The position numbers were made by a program, and so were the translations under genes. The notes beneath the pieces are model-generated. The model did no database searches and had not been told where the DNA came from. It saw only the letters and a program-made list of their open reading frames with translations. Below are positions 1,222 through 63,125 of a stretch of DNA of 64,000 bases, one piece after another. The first letter of the stretch is position 1. Each line of letters begins with the position of its first letter. This DNA is from Eledone cirrhosa (lineage: Eukaryota): the NCBI GenBank assembly GCA_964016885.1, contig OZ024740.1:98580001-98644000 (forward strand), in the 5' to 3' direction.

Positions 1222-3325
1222 ATGGGGAGCAGAGCTCCAAGCAGACAGAGAGTGACCTGGTGGTGGAATAGTACAGTAGATAGGGCCATTAGAGAGAAAA
1301 CACTAGCATGGAAGGCTTGGAAAAAGGGTGGGAGCAGAGAAGGATATACAGCCACTAAGAGAGAAGCTAGACATCAGGTGTACTTAGCACGCAGGGAGAC
1401 TGAGAGTAGGAGGTTTGCCAATGTTCTGCGACGGGAAGATCAGAGGCGTGTGGTGTTCCACATTGCAAGGCAGTGTGTCAATGCAAATCAGGATGTTGTT
1501 GGAGATAAATGTGTCTGGAATGATACCGGTGTACTTAGTGTCACAAATGATCAAAAGAAGGAGGCCAGGAAATGTCATTATTAGACACTAATGAATGTGA
1601 AGAACGAATGGGAGAGAGAGAAATTACCCTCAGTAGATCCGAAAGAGGGACCAGCTATTGAGATTGAAGAATATAGGGTCCAAGAGGCGATTAAGGAAAT
1701 AAAAAATGGTAAGGCTGCTGGACCGTCGGGAATAGTTGCTGAGATGCTGAAGGCATCAGGGGACGTAGGCACTAAACTGGTTGCACGCATCATCAATCAG
1801 GCTATATATGGTGGTGTCATACCCAAAGATTGGTGCAGCAGTATTCTCATAAATTGCTACAAAGGTAAAGGGGATGCTCTGGAGAGGAGCAATTATAGGG
1901 GTATGAAACTGATGGATCAGGTTATGAAAGTGGCGGAAAGGATATTAGCACAACTAATTAGAGAAGGGGTCAAACTAGATGAGATGGATTTTGGTTTTGT
2001 GCCTGGGAAAAGTACAACAGATGCCCTCTTCTTGGTGAGACAATTACAAGAGAGGTTCTTAGAGAAGAATAAGCCACTATACTTAGCCTTTGTTGACCTA
2101 GAGAAGGCCTTTGATAGGGTACCCCAATCTGTCATCTGGTGGTCCCTAAGGAAACAAGGTGTTGAGGAATGGCTTGTGAGGACAGTGAAAACTTTGTACA
2201 TAGGTGCTGTCAGTAAAGTCAGAGTAGGAATGGAGTTTAGTGAGGATTTCCTGATACAAGTAGGAGTACTCAAGGTTCGGTCCTCAGCCCACTCTTGTTC
2301 ATTATAGTCCTCAAAGCCATAACAGAGGAGTTTAAGACTGGATGTCCATGGGAGCTTCTCTATGCTGACGATTTAGTTCTTATAGCAGAATGAGTAGAGG
2401 AGCTAGAGAATAAATTCTGGCAATGGAAACAGCAGTTGGAAGCAAGAGGACTAAGATTGAACCTAGCTAAGACAAAAGTGCTGATGAGTAGAAAAGAGGA
2501 CAAAACTCTGATTCCATCAGGGAAATAACCATGTTCTATATGCAGAAAAAGAACTGGCATCAATTCTATAAAATGCACACAATGCAGATCCTGAGTACAC
2601 ATGAGATGTAGTGGGATAGCAGGCAAACTAACAGGTAGGGAGAAATACGTATGCAGTAGATGTACAGGGATATTACACAGTAGAAGTCGCATTGATAGAC
2701 ACATTTCTCAAATGCAGGCGGGTGCTATAGAAGTGGTGGATAGCTTCCGGTACCTAGGAGATCAGATTAGCATGGGATGGGGGTGTTCCGAGGCCATAGT
2801 ATCTAGAATAAGGATGGGTTGCAAGAAGTTTAGGGAGCTGCTTCCTTTGCTGACGAAGAAGGGTTTCTCCCTGCGTATGAAAGGCCGGTTATATGATACC
2901 TGTGTGAGGAACGCGATGCTGCATGGTATTGAGACATGGGCAGCAACTGCAGAGGATATGCGATGGCTGGAGAGAAATGAGGCAAGCATGCTCTTTTGGA
3001 TGAGCAATGTCAATGTGCGTGAACGACCCAGCATGGATGTGTTGAGAGAGAAACGGTATCTGAGAGGGACAGAATGTAGTGTGCGAGAGAGGAGACTGCA
3101 GTGGTATGGACGTGTGATGCGCATGGAGGATGACCGATGGGTGAAGAAGTGCCAGGAAATGCCAGTTGAAGAAAAACATGCATGGAGTTGGTGAGAACAG
3201 ACCTCAGATCGCTGAAGCGCACAGAGGAGATGACAAAGGACCATGACAAGTGGAGAGATGCTGTGCTGAATAAGACCCGTCCCACCCTTGCAAGCAGGGA
3301 AAAGCGGACATAAAATGATGTTGAT
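1222..3325 (+). mobile_element. 5'-truncated, disrupted RTE LINE (subfamily A, short 3' end) with RT, PHD remnant and (ATG)n-like tail
   Basis: ORFs 1222-1584, 1591-2307 and 2601-3194 are successive pieces of one RTE ORF (YRGMKL, AFVDLEKAFDRV, LLYADDL at ~2355). The 3' end reads cccgtcccacccttgcaagcagggaaaagcggacataaaatgatg. Confidence 0.92.
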
Positions 3326-3949
3326 GATTGCTTTGCAACGTGGAACACGTCACAATTTTAATCTTTATATCTTTGACCTCATGTCACATGATATTGTCAA
3401 ACCTCCTGCATTTAGACACTTTGTATATTATGTATGTCTGTTGTATAGCTTCTCTTTTAGCTATATGGTACTGATATTTGCTGCTGCATTTTTCAATCTT
3501 TCCACACCTGTCTCTTTTTTTTAAGAGCTCTGTCCACAGCATTCTTCTTCTATTATGTCATACGCTGACTGATTGGTGATTTGGTTCAGCCACAAATTTC
3601 TTCTGTAGCATATAGTAGGTTTCATAGAAACTTACAATTGCCTTCAATGTTATATTTATCTAACTCTTCCTCCCACTTGTCTTATGCATCCTGTAAAGCT
3701 TTGCTGAACCCATACTTAACAGAGAGTTGCTTTAGTTTCCACATTCCTTCTCCATATTTATTTGCATTTCTTGTTCTGTCTTGGGCTTTTCTGATGTCAC
3801 TAATTGTTAACGTATGTTCTGTGATTCATTATTCTCTGTGAAAGAACTTAAGATTTATAACCATCTGCCTATCCCATTTTATAATAATTAAAGAATTACT
3901 CTGGCTTGCATGTTTGTATAATTGGTAGATGATCAAGTGGTTGTTCGGT

Positions 3950-25748: not shown

Positions 25749-29010
<3,262 letters not shown>

Positions 29011-30577: not shown

Positions 30578-30606
<29 letters not shown>

Positions 30607-30608
<2 letters not shown>

Positions 30609-33600
30609 GACAAATTCACCTCTTGGACGAGAATGCGAGCACTCCTCATTGTTTCGACCGCGGACGGCTAACATAACCCCATCGTCCCCCGCCCCTCACC
30701 GCCCCCAACCCCCAAACGCAATCCCAAACTTCAGAGTTGGTACCATAAATGTAGGCACCCTAAAGGGTCGCGCTAACGAGGTTGTAGAAATGCTTGAACG
30801 TAAGGAGGTCGATGTTTGTTGTATTCAAGAGACCAGGTGGAGGGGTGGGTCTGCTAGGTTCATTGAGGGTAAAAAACGATGTTATAAGCTTTTCTGGGTG
30901 GGAAACGACGATGGGCTGGGTGGAGTAGGAATCATGGTAGCAGAAAAGTGGGCAGATAAGATAATAGACGTAAATAGAGTGAACGACAGAATAATTAAAA
31001 TACGACTTGTCCTCAATAGAACTACGGTGACAGTAATATCTGCGTACGCACCCCAATCCGGACTGCCCGGCACTATAAAAGACAGATTCTATGAGACACT
31101 GATGCTAACTACCTCCCAAATATCCGACAGTGACTATATAATTATCGCAGGCGACCTAAATGGTCACGTTGGACAACATTGTGACGGCTACGACGAAATC
31201 CATGGAGGCTATGGGTTTGGTACTAGAAATGAGGAAGGCGCCAGAATACTGGAATTCTGTGATGCAAATAACCTAACTATCTGTAACACTAACTTCAAAA
31301 AACGTGACAATCACCTGATCACCTATAGATCCGGGGAACACACAAGCCAGGTAGATTATATCCTTACCAGAAGACGTGACAGAGTGTCTGTTGTTAACAC
31401 TAAATCCCTCCCCCATGAAGAATGCACCTCCCAACATAGACTGATAATTAGCGACCTCATAGTCAGGACGAGACGTACTCGACAACAGAAGAGGACTATC
31501 CTCAGGAGGAAAATATGGAAGCTAAAGGACCCCACAGCCAGGAATAAATTTCAAAGCATATTACTTGATGCTTTCGACAGTAAGGAAGAACATTTAGAGT
31601 CGGACAATATAGAGGGAGAGTGGGAATTTCTGAAAGCAAACCTGCTGTTGGCGACAGACGAGGTCTGTGGCTGGAGCAGGCCTGTAGGCAGGAGGAGAGT
31701 AACATGGTGGTGGAACAGTAAGGTGGAGGGGTCAATTAAGGCCAAAAAGCAGGCTTGGAAAGTATGGCGGGATGGGGGAAGTAGAGAGGACTATCAAGTG
31801 GCCAGGAGGGAAGCTAGGAGACAAGTGTACTTAGCAAGAAGGGAAGCTGAGGAAAGAAAGTTCAAGCATGTTCTACAACGCGATGACCAAAAACGTGAGG
31901 TGTTCAGGATTGCTAGGCAATGTGTCAAGGAAAACCGTGATATTGTCGGGGAGAAGTGTGTACTAAACGACGATGGCACACTTGCCATCACCGACGCTGA
32001 TAAGAAGGTAGCTTGGAAGTGTCACTATGAAAGGCTACTAAATGAGGAGAATAATTGGGAGAAAGGCAGTCTCCCCCATATCGACCCAATAGAGGGACCA
32101 GCAGTGTTAGTCGAGGGGAGTATAATAAGTAAGGCAATCAAGGATATGAAGACTGGTAAGGCGGCTGGGCCTTCGGAAATAGTTGCTGAGATGCTGAAGG
32201 CATCTGGCACGGTGGGGCACACCATGGTCACCCGCATAGTTAACCAAGTCGTACAGAATGGGGTTGTTCCGAAGGACTGGCATAGCAGCATCATCGTTAA
32301 CTGTTATAAGGGTAAAGGAGACGCCCTAGATAGGAGTAACTATAGAGGCATTAAATTAATCGACCAGGTCATGAAGGTCACGGAAAAAGTAATAGCGCAA
32401 CTAATCAGAGAGAGAATTGACCTAGATGAAATGCAGTTCGGGTTCGTGTCAGGCAAAAGTACCACAGACGCTCTTTTCATAGTACGACAACTACAGGAGA
32501 AGTACCTAGCTAAAGGTAAACCCCTCTACTTAGCTTTTGTCGACTTGGAGAAAGCCTTCGACAGAGTCCCCCGCTCCATTATCTGGTGGGCTCTTAGAAA
32601 ACTAGGCGTTGACGAATGGCTTGTGAGGGCTATACAAGCCATGTATAAAGAAACAGTCAGCAAGGTTAGAATTAACAACGAATATAGTGAAGAGTTTAGC
32701 GTAAAAGTTGGCGTCCATCAGGGCTCTGTTCTCAGTCCACTACTATTTATTATTGCCCTTCAGGCTATAACAGAGGAGTTCAAGACAGGCTGCCCATGGG
32801 AACTCCTATACGCAGACGACCTGACACTCATAGCGGAATCAATGGCCGAGCTAGAGAAGAAATTCCAAACATGGAAGCACGGCCTAGAGTCAAAAGGACT
32901 TAAAATTAACCTGGCTAAGACCAAAGTACTAGTTTGTAGGAAAGAAAACAAGGCGGCGGTCCCTTCTGGGAAATGGTTGTGCTCGGTGTGTAGGAAAGGC
33001 GTAGGTAGAAACTCCATTTTATGTCCTAAATGCAAAGTATGGGTGCATAAAAGATGTAGTGGGATCACAGGTAAGCTAACTAAGAACATAGATTTTACAT
33101 GTGGCCGGTGCTCTGGTGCAATAAGTAGCAGCAAGTGCCCACAAACTACTAGCTCTTTCAATTGCACAGAGGGTTCTATAGAAATAGTGGACAGCTTCCG
33201 TTACCTGGGCGATAAAATCAGCAGTGGGGGAGGGTGCTCTGAAAGTACTGTAGCTAGAGTCAGAACTGGTTGGAAAAAGTTCAGAGAGCTTATACCACTA
33301 TTAGCTGCTAAAGGGTTCTCACTAAAAATGAAAGGCAGGTTGTACGATGCCTGCATACGAACAGCAATGCTGCATGGCAGTGAGACCTGGGCATTGTGTG
33401 CAGAGGATATACGCAGACTAGAGAGGAACGAAGCTTGCATGCTCCGCTGGATGTGTAACAGTAATATACGTGAACGGCAAAGCATAAACGAACTAAGGAA
33501 AAAATTAGAGATAAGAGGGATCAGATGTTGTTTATTCGAGAGAAGGCTACGTTGGTATGGACACGTGATGCGCATGAAAGTCGATAGCTGTATAACAAAG

Positions 33601-33765
33601 TGCAGGGCAATAAAGATAGACGGTAGTCACGGAATAGGCAGACCTAGAAAAACCTGGGACGAGCTGATAAACTCCGACATCACACACTTACACCTCTCCA
33701 AGACAATGTCACTGGACCGAGACCTTTGGCGGTACTCAGTAACAGAGAAGACCCGCCTTACCTAA
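30607..33765 (+). CDS. RTE-clade LINE polyprotein, 1052 aa, uninterrupted: APE endonuclease - reverse transcriptase - PHD finger - C-terminal domain
   Basis: EN: GTINVGTL, CIQETRW, SAYAPQ, AGDLNGHVG, QVDYIL, SQHRL. RT: YRGIKL, QFGF, FVDLEKAFDRV, GVHQGSVLSPLLF, YADD. C4HC3 at 32980-33111. The first in-element ATG is at 30607; the track start at 30544 runs through (TA)n. Confidence 0.95.
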
Positions 33766-34170
33766 ATATATAGTAAAACCTACTCCAGCCAGTAGGCATC
33801 TCTAACAAAATACACCCCGTCCCACCACCACCACCCCCACCCGATCCACACCACCCCGTTCTATGTAAAGTTATGTTGGTGCCGCGCCATCGAGGCCGAA
33901 ACAAATGAGATCGTGTAGGTGTCACGACAAAAAAACACACAGTCCACGCTGTAATGTGGCCGTGTAGGCAACACGGTAAAAACCTCCCAGACCCACACTG
34001 TAAATGTGGTTGGTGTTAGGAAGGGCATCCAACTGTAGAAAACCTGCCAGACAGTCCTATGCGAGCTAGACAATCACTCTTGCCTCAAGTGGGACTACCC
34101 CCGTCCAAACCCATGCAAGCGTGGAACACGGACGTTAAACGTTGATGATGATGATGATGATGATGATGAT
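30607..34170 (+). mobile_element. Near full-length RTE LINE, subfamily B, flanked by TA repeats, with ~400-bp 3' UTR and (GAT)n tail
   Basis: ORF above; 3' UTR to ggacgttaaacgtt(gat)n; a highly similar copy lies at 62015-63125. Confidence 0.93.
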
Positions 34171-49963: not shown

Positions 49964-49968
<5 letters not shown>

Positions 49969-51008
49969 GGTACACAAGAGATGTAGCGGGATCTCAGGAA
50001 GCTTAATTAAAAATGTAGGCTTCACATGTAGCAGCTGCGCTGGAACAGCAAGCGGCAAGCAGCCACAGGAAACAAGTACGACCAATCTCTGGAAAGGCTC
50101 TGTAGAAACAGTAGACAGCCTCTGCTACCTTGGTGACCAAATTTGCAGCGGAGGTGTTCAGAAAGGACAGTAACTAGGGTAAGAACGTGATGGAAGAACT
50201 TCGGGGAACTACTGCCACTGCTAGCTGCAAAAGGCTTTTACCTCAAAATGAAAGGCAGACTGTATGATGCATGTATACGAACAGCAATGTTACATGGTAG
50301 TGAGACCTGGGCGCTGAAGGTGGAAGACTTACGTAGATTAGAAAGAAACGAAGCCTACATGCTCCGATGGATGTGTAATAGTAATATATGCGAACGGCAA
50401 AGTATAAATGAATTGAGAGAGAGACTGAGCATAAGAGGAATCAAATGCTGTGTGCAGGAGAAGCGGTTGCGTTGGTATGGACATGTGATGCGTATGAAGG
50501 ATGACAGCTCCATAAAAAGGTGCAGGGCACTAGAAGTCAATGGAAGCCACTGTGTGGGGAGACCCAAGAAGGCCTGGGATGAGGTAATAAAAACCGACCT
50601 TACACAATTACACCTCTCAAAGGCGATAACACACGACCGTGACCTCTGGCGTCACGCAGTAATACAGAGTACCCGACCTCCCATGGGTACAAGCTGAAGC
50701 ATATAGACAATATGACCCCACACCCTCCCACTGCAAAGTGGCCGTGGAGGTTCCACGGCAAAAAAGCACCCAGCCCACACTGTAAAGCGGACGTGTAGGC
50801 GCCACGGAAAAAAGCACCCAGCACTCACTGTAAATGAGGTTGGTGTTAGGAAGGGCATCCAGCTGTAGAAATCAACCCAAAATCAGTTCCTTTATGAGCA
50901 AGGCATGGTCAGCCGACCAGACACTCTCCACAACAGGACAACCCGTCTAACCCATGCTAGCATGGAAGAACGGACGTAAAACGGTGATGATGATGATGAT
51001 AATGATGA
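49964..51008 (+). mobile_element. 5'-truncated RTE subfamily C copy in (TA)n
   Basis: Starts at WVHKRCSG; ORF 50248-50697; distinct 3' UTR; (GAT)n tail. Confidence 0.92.
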
Positions 51009-55033: not shown

Positions 55034-55228
55034 ACAGATCTTAGAGACACAAGATGTGTAGTGGGATAGTAAGCAAACTAACAGGAAATAAAAACTTCAT
55101 ATGTTCAGGGAAAATTGATAGCGGAAGTGTCAGTGATAGGCACGTATTTCAAACGCAGATAGGATCTATAGAGGTGGTTGATAGCTTTCGATATCTAGGT
55201 GATCAAATTAGCAAAAGAAGAGGATGCA
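55033..55228 (+). mobile_element. Short RTE fragment (PHD to YLGDQIS), lacking both ends
   Basis: [28 protein letters not shown]; starts at (TA)n. Confidence 0.8.
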
Positions 55229-56860
55229 CCTCCGCCCAAGTTTTTCGTGGTCTTGCTCTACTACGTCTTCCTTCAACTGGTATTTCTTCGCACTTCTTCA
55301 CCCATTGGTCATCCTCAATGGGAATCATATATCCATACCCTCACAGGCTCCTCTCGCGCACACTACAATTTATCCCTCTCAGACACAGTTTCTCTCTAAA
55401 CACATCCATGCTCGGTCGTGTACGCACATTGACATTGCACATCCAACGGAGCATGCTTGCCTCATTTCTCTCCTGCCGTCGCATATCCTCTGCAGTTGCT
55501 GCCCATGTCTCACTACCATGCAGCATCGCGCACGTCACACAGGCATCATATAACCGGCCTTTCGTATGCAGGGAGAAAACCTTCTTCGTCAGCAGAGGAA
55601 GTAGCTCTCTAAACTTCTTCCAACCCATCCTTATTCTAGATACTATGGCCTCGGAACACCCCCTCCCATGCTAATCTGATCACCTAGGTACCGGAAGCTA
55701 TCAACCACTTCTATAGCACCCACATTCATTTGAAAAATGTGTCTATCAATGCGACTTCTACTGTCTAATTTCCCTGTACATCTACTGCGTACATATTTCT
55801 CCTTACCTGTTAGTTTGCCTGCTATACCACTACATCTCTTGTGTACCCAAGATCTGCATTGCGTACATTTTATAGAATTTATGCCTGTTCCTTTTCTGAA
55901 AATCGAACATGGCCATTTCCCTGACGGAATCAGAGTTTTGTCCTCTTCTACTCATCAAAATCTTTGTCTTAGCTAGGTTTACTCTCAGTCCTCTCGATTC
56001 TAACTGCAGTTTCCATAGCCAGAATTTATTCTCTAGGTCCTCAACTGATTCTGCTATAAGAACCAGAGAAGTTCCCATGGACAGCCGGTCTTAATCTCCT
56101 CTGTTATGGCTTGGAGGACTATAATGAACAAGAGCGGGATGAGGAGCGAAGCCAGATGTAGTCTTACTTGTATCTGGAATTCCTCACTAAACTCCATTCC
56201 AACCCTCACTTTACTGACAGCACCTCTGTACAAAGCTTGCACTGTCCTCACAAATCATTCCTCAACACCTTTTTTTCCTTAGAGACCACCAGATGACAGA
56301 TCGGGGTACCTATCAAAGGCCTTCTCTAGGTCAACAACAGCTAAGTATAGTGGCTTATTCTTCTCTAAGAACCTCTCTTGTAATTGTCTCACTAAGAAGA
56401 GTGCATCTGTTGTACTTTTCCCAGGCACAAAGCCAAACTGCATCTCATCTAGTTTGATCCTTTCTCTAATTAGTTGCGCTAATATCCTTTCTTCCACTTT
56501 CATAACCTGATCCATCAGTTTAATGCCCCTATAATTGCTCCTCTCCAGAGCATCCCCTTTACCTTTGTAGCAATTTATGAGAATACTACTGCACCAGTCT
56601 TTCGGTATGACACCACCATATATAGCCTCATTCATGATGCGTGCAACCAGTTTAGTGCCTACGTCGCCTGATGCCTTCAGCATCTCAGCAACTATCCCCG
56701 ATGGTCCAGCGGCCTTATGATTTTTCCTTTTCTTAATCCCCTCTTGGACCCCATATTCGTCAATCTCAATAGCTGGTCCCTCTGTCGGATCTACTGGGGG
56801 TAATTTCTCTCTCTCCCATTCGTTCTCCACATTCATCAGTCTCTCATAATGACATTTCCT
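55226..56860 (-). mobile_element. RTE subfamily A copy lacking its 3' end
   Basis: ORFs 56279-56905, 56054-56251, 55830-56078 and 55341-55628; highly similar to 1565-3200. Confidence 0.92.
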
Positions 56861-62014: not shown

Positions 62015-63122
62015 ATCATCATCATCATCATCATCATCAACGTTTAACGTCCGTGTTCCACGATTGCATGGGTTTAAACGGGGGTAGTCCCACTTGAGGC
62101 AAGAGTGATTGTCTTGCTCTCATAGGACTGTCTGGCAGGTTTTCTACAGTTGGATGCCCTTCCTAACACCAACCACATTTACAGTGTGGGTCTGGGAGGT
62201 TTTTACCGTGTTGCCTACACGGCCACATTACAGCGTGGACTGGGTGTTTTTTTGTCGTGACACCTACACGATCTCATTTGCTTCGGCCTGGATGGTGTGG
62301 CACCAACACAACTTTACATAGAACGGGGTGGCGTGGATGGGGTGGGGGTGGTGGGACGGGGGGTATTTTGTTAGAGATGCCTACTGGCTGTAGTAGGTTT
62401 TACTATGTATTTAGGTAAGGCTGGTCTTCTCTGTTACTGAGTACCGCCAAAGGTCTCGGTCCAGTGACATTGTCTTGGAGAGGTGTAAGTGTGTGAGGTC
62501 GGAGTTTATCAGCTCGTCCCAGGTTTTTCTAGGTCTGCCTATTCCGTGGCTACCGTCTATCTTTATTGCCCTGCACTTTGTTATACAGCTATCGACTTTC
62601 ATGCGCATCACGTGTCCATACCAACGTAGCCTTCTCTCGAGTAAACAACATCTGATCCCTCTTATTTCTAATTTTTTCCTTAGTTCGTTTATGCTTTGCC
62701 GTTCACGTATATTACTGTTACACATCCAGCGGAGCATGCAAGCTTCGTTCCTCTCTAGTCTGCGTATATCCTCTGCACACAATGCCCAGGTCTCACTGCC
62801 ATGCAACATTGCTGTTCGTATGCAGGCATCGTACAACCTGCCTTTCATTTTTAGAGAGAACCCTTTAGCAGCTAATAGTGGTATAATCTCTCTGAACTTT
62901 TTCCAACCAGTTCTGACTCTAGCTACTGTACTTTCAGAGCACCCTCCCCCACTGCTGATTTTATCACCCAGGTAACGGAAACTGTCCACTATTTCTATAG
63001 AACCCTCTGCGCAATTGAAAGAGCTAGTATTTTTGTGGGCACTTGCTGCTACTTATTGCACCAGAGCACCGGCCACATGTAAAATCTATGTTCTTAGTTA
63101 GCTTACCTGTGATCCCACTACA

Positions 63123-63125
<3 letters not shown>
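62015..63125 (-). mobile_element. Young 5'-truncated RTE subfamily B copy in (TA)n
   Basis: ORF 62411-62989 differs from the intact ORF C-terminus at only a few residues; B-type 3' UTR; TA on both sides. Confidence 0.95.

Follow-up and report, generated by a model that had tools for sequence, protein, structure and literature searches.

Chromatin readers are coupled to retroelement integration enzymes in the integrase chromodomains of chromoviruses and in tethering by LEDGF, and these are long terminal repeat (LTR) or retroviral integrases for which targeting has been shown. Among long interspersed nuclear elements (LINEs), a PHD finger is known from CR1/L2, where it lies in ORF1 or at the N-terminus of the open reading frame (ORF); general chromatin targeting has been proposed for it, with no functional studies known (PMC4120745). 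RTE-clade LINEs, such as the PHD-less catfish and plant proteins P0212 and P0298 and RTE-2_OV of octopus (PMC9115989), have a single ORF with an apurinic/apyrimidinic (APE)-type endonuclease and a reverse transcriptase (RT), a microsatellite tail and a long 5' untranslated region (UTR), and their AT-repeat target sites are linked to the tail (PMC6007223). An insertion between RT motifs 6 and 7 is known from R2Bm, a site-specific element with a restriction-like endonuclease, in which a short loop, 6a, reads DNA (PDB 8GH6; PMC10499050). In this study, we analyzed 64,000 nucleotides of the Eledone cirrhosa genome (assembly GCA_964016885.1, contig OZ024740.1, positions 98,580,001 to 98,644,000 of the forward strand), hereafter the window, which carries an RTE-clade LINE copy at 30609..34170 (+). 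We found that the element has the features of RTE LINEs given above and that, unlike in CR1/L2, its PHD finger lies inside the RT catalytic domain of another clade. The insertion is not a short loop as in R2Bm but a folded zinc finger of 50 residues, and the element is dispersed and of the APE type. The finding is a real, old and well-conserved variant of RTE LINEs, and the window copy is a truncated member of it.

The identity of the finger was examined with profiles and predicted structures. An earlier note, made from the sequence alone, had read endonuclease and RT motifs in an open frame of 1052 codons, and Pfam matched both domains in this frame (30607..33765, +): Exo_endo_phos at residues 46-262 and RVT_1 at 576-776. 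PHD was matched at residues 792-835 with 25.7 bits (cut-off 24), and the isolated segment scored 32.3 bits (E 1e-7), so that the profile check proposed in the note gave a match for each domain. The finger, with a conserved SGK-aromatic lead-in, occupies 32965..33111 (+). Its ligands are at 32980, 32989, 33022, 33031, 33046 (His), 33055, 33100 and 33109; the C4HC3 spacing and the W-x-H are exactly those that had been described, and an aromatic residue stands two positions before Cys7. The finger folded alone had a predicted local distance difference test score (pLDDT) of 76. A VIA comparison of this fold returned proteins with PHD-finger titles in 49 of 50 rows, with Pygopus at the top (Z 5.4, root-mean-square deviation (rmsd) 2.9, 51 residues aligned), and the top Foldseek rows were TAF3, Pygo2 and BPTF with peptides of histone H3 methylated at lysine 4 (H3K4me; best E 0.027). 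The best fold matches are therefore the PHD of TAF3 and that of Pygopus 1/2, a reader of H3K4me2/3 (PMC2726290). Structure prediction thus recovered a PHD fold that matches almost solely PHD fingers. C1 or RING identity was rejected because the Pfam scores were below cut-off, and a chance motif was rejected by the invariance of the ligands. These results indicate that the finger is a genuine C4HC3 PHD.

The position of the finger was determined from a model of the full protein (mean pLDDT 88, predicted template modelling score 0.84). The 1052-codon frame comprises the APE-type endonuclease (residues ~42-283; 30730..31455, with motifs at 30742, 30820, 31150, 31354 and 31429), the tower, RT motifs 0-6 (32107..32934, with YADD at 32809 and the end of motif 6 at ~32934), the PHD finger with variable linkers on both sides, the motif 7 or primer-grip hairpin (33178..33216, with FRYLG at 33196), and the thumb, wrist and stop codon (33217..33765), all on the forward strand. 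In the model, motif 6 ends in a strand (773-777) and FRYLG is held by the hairpins 850-872, and the finger stands between these two elements. Because motif 7 comes after it, the finger is part of the RT itself, within the motif 6-7 (6a) loop, and does not follow the RT core as had been thought. The distance from motif 6 to motif 7 is 84-97 amino acids with the PHD and 26-33 without it. The whole model matches human L1 ORF2p 6-1061, and the RT part gave a VIA Z of 27.3 (rmsd 3.8, 576 residues aligned). Since the model ends at L1 residue 1061, it has no C-terminal zinc domain or knuckle. Residue 775 aligns with R2Bm 666, and by profile with 668; the R2Bm 6a loop (672-677) reads target DNA and is required for nicking (PMC10499050).

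We next consider the conservation and spread of the insert. None of the eight ligands varied in any of 121 rows, whose whole-protein identity was 44-56%. On the conservation scale, RT motifs 0-4 scored 0.72, the finger 0.67 and the endonuclease 0.63, and the two linkers 0.30 each. Compared with 15 older-subfamily copies, a non-independent set selected by PHD score, the ratio of nonsynonymous to synonymous substitution rates (dN/dS) in the finger was 0.07-0.21. Purifying selection on the PHD codons, for which the earlier note had asked, is supported by both the ratio and the ligands. A search with residues 700-1000, a query region that includes the finger, gave 861 matches, and the finger was present in 120 of the 120 matches listed. 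With the endonuclease only, 120 homologs were listed: 94 with the finger, 3 without it, 19 without a YADD-type motif and 4 that end early, so that the finger is present in 94 of 97 endonuclease-selected homologs that reach motif 7. The PHD segment matched 1417 representatives at E 0.001. Within the window, remnants of the PHD are found in the copies at ~1228-3286, 49966-50676, 55227-56857 and 62015-63125, and the BovB-like relic has no insert at the same position, as had been reported for both.

A quick IQ-TREE was built on RT motifs 0-6 with 49 of 184 PHD rows and 45 of 92 PHD-less rows left by a redundancy filter, and one CR1. The element grouped with RTE, and all 49 PHD rows fell on one side of a branch with a Shimodaira-Hasegawa-like approximate likelihood ratio support of 99 (in this quick tree, the root is a long branch). 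The insert thus has a single origin on the RT tree, and it is old and widespread in a broad animal RTE branch. The named hosts of PHD-RTE relatives are octopus, with Octopus bimaculoides as the best named relative, and catfish; Atlas clusters auto-named 'PHD-finger/Reverse transcriptase' point to Mollusca and Cnidaria by very few records. The PHD-RT architecture is therefore already visible in automatic annotation. No description of a PHD inside an RTE RT was found by full-text searches, and an earlier mention is possible in supplements, Repbase texts and subscription papers outside this scope. Term look-ups in PMC1291365, PMC9004415, PMC2997562 and PMC11203168 gave no relevant mention. No host donor was evident among the 148 new representatives listed; 75 were flagged with RT motifs, and the other 73 were by eye RTE fragments except one C1-repeat-like protein. 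The finger had no similarity to the CR1 ORF1 finger of this genome (E 0.63). A catfish PHD-RTE frame (P0066, P0441) is annotated as a slc22a21 isoform, probably by mis-annotation or through exonisation. About 24 PHD matches with near-identical scores cluster at ~19.3-23.7 Mb of G000:C25, which suggests a tandemly amplified PHD-bearing unit.

Pygo1 holds H3K4me2 in a cage of W366, Y341, D352, V350 and A356 and has no Arg2 pocket (PMC2726290). The cage was mapped by ligand spacing through the Pygo2 alignment, by which Y341, V350, A356 and W366 would correspond to the aromatic residue 790, Val799, Ser803 and Trp812. Of 185 relatives, 168 retain these four of the five cage positions jointly. The Trp of the cage, found in 182 of 185 at the second position ahead of the His, is joined by further aromatic or hydrophobic cage residues; the T3-pocket Ile was Ile or Val in 178 of 185. 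The finger resembles Pygopus in the Y-P-C start, the Val, the Ala/Ser-Ile, the W-x-H cage position and the lack of an Arg2 pocket, and differs in its shorter loops and in having no BCL9-type partner known. Readers of H3K4me0 such as BHC80 and AIRE have an acidic cluster before Cys1 and no aromatic cage (PMC3241642); here, 0-1 acidic residues were found in the six before Cys1 in 176 of 185 relatives. The evidence for an H3K4me reader is mixed, as the pocket is present and the acidic surround is absent. These features make a chromatin-reader role of the finger plausible.

The most likely reading, though at no better than even odds, is that the PHD finger is a chromatin tether for target-primed reverse transcription, rather than a strong targeting device. 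The endonuclease would nick AT-repeat DNA, where the (GAT)n tail would pair as in other RTEs. The finger may extend out of the palm close to the target DNA, with a basic face that could touch nucleosomal or linker DNA, and the Pygopus-like pocket (aromatic 790, Val799, Ser803, Trp812) could bind the methylated H3K4 tail. Such a tether would let target-primed reverse transcription dwell longer on chromatin and succeed more often there, with little steering to one compartment. In the chromovirus and LEDGF cases, targeting accompanies the reader; here, in contrast, the enzyme is a non-LTR polymerase with a weak bias at most.

Several observations weigh against such a tether. D352 and E360 of Pygopus have no counterpart here, so that the acidic surround of H3K4me2/3 readers is missing, as is the Arg2 pocket of BPTF, ING and TAF3, and E360 mutants of Pygopus lose binding (PMC2726290). 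The histone face of Pygopus is acidic, and of seven complete fingers of the host in this genome, six have net charges of -9 to +1 and one has +6, whereas the finger of the element has a median of +8 (range +1 to +11, none at or below 0; n=121). The fold scores are modest (Z ~5; Foldseek E ~0.03). The shared 6a position does not establish a shared contact, because the endonuclease of R2 is arranged differently and human L1 carries a 6a insertion of its own (PMC10830420). The conserved finger residues could pack against the RT instead. The CpG observed-to-expected ratio (o/e) of flanks in 700-nt windows was 0.48 for PHD-RTE (98 of 112 usable) and 0.62 for random sites (55 of 60); it was not different from random (p=0.21 at 700 nt, p=0.23 at 2 kb; p=0.035 in a first smaller set), and in this comparison several tests were run, family ages differ and selection after insertion is uncontrolled.

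The finger might instead serve purely as a nucleic-acid clamp: as a basic zinc finger of the cross-brace type, it would grip target DNA or template RNA and take the place of the absent C-terminal zinc domain. We consider this unlikely, but its net charge of +8 with conserved K789, K797, K815 and R/K816, and the 6a-loop position, would suit such a role. The protein has no zinc knuckle at its C-terminus, where the PHD-less BovB-type family carries C2H2 fingers, and the finger may compensate for this. Precedents for DNA binding are BRPF2 PHD2 and PHF6 ePHD2 (PMC6222470), and a cross-brace finger is found in piggyBac (PMC5861402). However, DNA-binding PHDs are atypical, with altered ligand order, His as the last ligand, an extra beta-sheet and no histone-binding residues (PMC6222470), whereas this finger is a canonical C4HC3 with a four-residue cage. 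The BovB-type RTE (L301-L340) is a fairly young family whose protein ends in three C2H2 fingers. It is probably related to RTE-2_OV, which is described with a C2H2 finger (PMC9115989) and by this description fits the BovB-type family and not PHD-RTE. Downstream of about ten BovB-type copies stands a repeat unit common to them, which ends like the element's own 3' end.

It is still less probable that the pocket binds a partner other than a histone, for which a host factor of replication, repair or import with a methylated or H3-mimic peptide would qualify, or that the finger has a structural or regulatory role packed against the RT. The missing acidic residues and the weak insertion bias would agree with this, PHD fingers also bind non-histone proteins (PMC3241642), and PHF2-VRK1 and MLL4-TET3 were among the fold-match rows. 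However, the variable linkers on both sides (0.30) suggest a mobile module and not a packed core, and each position of the pocket agrees with the pattern of K4-methyl readers.

The chromatin tether would steer little, and the insertion sites were examined for a bias. (TA)3 was found within 20 nt of the ends in 37 of 58 and 30 of 40 PHD-RTE copies, compared to 8.5% at random, and in 15 of 29 PHD-less BovB-type RTE ends (found in 29 of 40 copies) and 4 of 53 young CR1 copies. The (TA)n preference as an effect of the PHD was rejected, since it is common to the PHD-less BovB-type RTE, which agrees with the link of RTE tails to target sites (PMC6007223). At many junctions (L005, L039, L048, L050, L051, L055, L058, L068), the short AT-rich unit of the target occurs several times over on one side or on both, as though it had been amplified by the insertion or by slippage afterwards. 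The flank CpG o/e in 700-nt windows was 0.69 for BovB-type (28 of 29 usable) and 0.40 for CR1 (51 of 52), and PHD-RTE was lower than BovB-type at 700 nt (p=0.017; p=0.087 at 2 kb). Both finger-bearing families, PHD-RTE and CR1, lean CpG-poor, and the effect is small. Octopus methylation marks the bodies of expressed genes (PMC9476566), so that in octopus this lean would mean expressed gene bodies. CR1 was rejected as a PHD-free control because its ORF1 carries a PHD-like C4C4 motif by eye (no Pfam PHD match). This young CR1-type family (L263-L270, about 2140-3470; L071-L100) has an ORF2 frame of 945 aa and a Cys in place of the His in its ORF1 finger, and its flanks were the most CpG-poor of the families tested. 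The claim that the finger guides integration found little support, as the (TA)n preference is common to PHD-less RTE and flank CpG is weakly shifted. It is very improbable that the finger strongly steers the element to a single compartment, either promoters with H3K4me3 or gene bodies that are methylated. The K4-methyl-type cage, gene-body methylation, the lower flank CpG than in PHD-less RTE and the stronger in-copy CpG decay (2.3-2.9x background vs 1.7) would favor it, but only 43 of 98 PHD-RTE flanks were below an o/e of 0.45 compared to 17 of 55 random ones, the flanks had no shift toward the CpG-rich DNA expected of promoter targeting, the lineage is found in 17 of 60 random samples, CpG decay within copies was not correlated with the o/e of their flanks (rho -0.16, p=0.32), and PHD-less RTE has the same (TA)n preference.

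The genome (3.0 Gb searched) was also used to place the window copy within its family, and 40 copies picked for long open frames were fetched. The first bases of the window copy were reached by 30 of the 40, and 28 of these 30 have an upstream Met; the native family protein has 1056 aa, with its Met five codons upstream of the window copy's start. A 5' UTR of ~700 nt, common to several fetched copies, is wholly missing from the window copy. Two CCAAT-like boxes in this UTR, whose true 5' end is not fixed, may form the promoter. The apparent ATG of the window copy is a junction artefact, made of the last AT of a (TA)13.5 host microsatellite (30582..30608) and the first G of the element. The copy had been called intact and possibly active; it lacks its own 5' UTR or promoter and its first five native codons, including the native start. 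Because it is 5'-truncated, it is unlikely to be autonomous, and it is probably not active itself. Its 3' UTR (33766..34142, +) is followed by a (TGA/GAT)9 tail (34143..34170, +) that runs into the AT-repeat target, in which a target-site duplication cannot be delimited. A copy at 62015..63125 (-), described as near-identical, is indeed a sister, but is 96.6% identical, 5'-truncated inside the PHD and frameshifted, with (TA)n flanks; copies of 99-99.6% lie elsewhere in the genome.

The window copy differs from its sisters at four residues, including Leu791 beside the first ligand, where 27 of 28 others have Ser. Leu791 arises by a CpG transition from the Ser791 of the young family, and a private Pro-to-Leu change was rejected because of this Ser. 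Position 32978 was C in nearly all of the depth of four contig runs, which agrees with Leu791 being private to the window; these runs have no listed joint across the element and say nothing on polymorphism. In the youngest subfamily, the residue directly preceding the first ligand (codon 32977-32979) is Ser, and Pro was found there in 183 of 185 relatives.

A first look gave 82,749 candidates, and 150 of 150 scored matches were 98-100% identical. The mean pairwise divergence was 0.42% among 29 long copies, and the frame from endonuclease to stop was open in 32 of 35 long copies, a set picked for open frames. The wider lineage matched 17 of 60 random 3-kb samples and ~8.5% of their bases (overlaps not removed). 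The family is young, recently mass-amplified and abundant. The proposal of a lineage that moved recently thus holds for the family and not for the finger, which is an old feature of a wide animal branch. An active RTE has been reported in O. bimaculoides (PMC9115989).

The assignment to RTE is supported by the single ORF, in which an APE endonuclease precedes a non-LTR RT, and no conserved upstream ORF was found in the family 5' UTR, where frames vary with GA-repeat length. Of 62 copies examined, 58 extend to the 3' end, and every one of these 58 carries a (GAT)6-9 tail; truncation points were 3'-biased. The RT was nested among PHD-less proteins, including catfish and soybean rows, with CR1 far outside; the RTE label of the tree rows was read from their motifs, without a Repbase reference sequence. 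A truncation hotspot inside the finger, hinted at by three window copies, was absent among 64 sampled 5' ends. The 5' UTR (copies L031-L069) has variable (GA)n, (GATG)n, (CT)n and (TA)n tracts, and in several copies one GA unit fewer opens the frame 80-100 codons further upstream. Rearranged ends, with short 5' duplications and one 3' inversion, were seen at C1 ~432.49 Mb (L070), C2 143.45 Mb (L046) and C2 92.21 Mb (L044).

Elsewhere in the window, two adjacent frames (337 and 166 aa) at 27226-28842 (-) have, by eye, motifs of what we take to be a relic of a Penelope-type RT with a GIY-YIG endonuclease.

The architecture of LINE ORF2 is thought to be rigid, and its structure has been described as highly constrained (PMC4120745). 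The motif 6-7 loop of this family tolerates a folded domain, which bears on the engineering of non-LTR insertion tools. Tentatively, an animal LINE branch from cnidarians and molluscs to fish may have built a Pygopus-type methyl-H3K4 reader into the target-facing RT loop, which would be the first non-LTR polymerase to read a histone mark while inserting and a natural slot for grafting targeting modules. Whether LINE PHD fingers have any part in target choice is a question posed by the CR1/L2 report (PMC4120745). Because the finger and the enzyme are one polypeptide, with many near-identical open copies and a PHD-less RTE in the same genome, this question is directly testable by point mutants. 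Since the family makes up several percent of the genome, any chromatin bias of its insertion would shape that genome.

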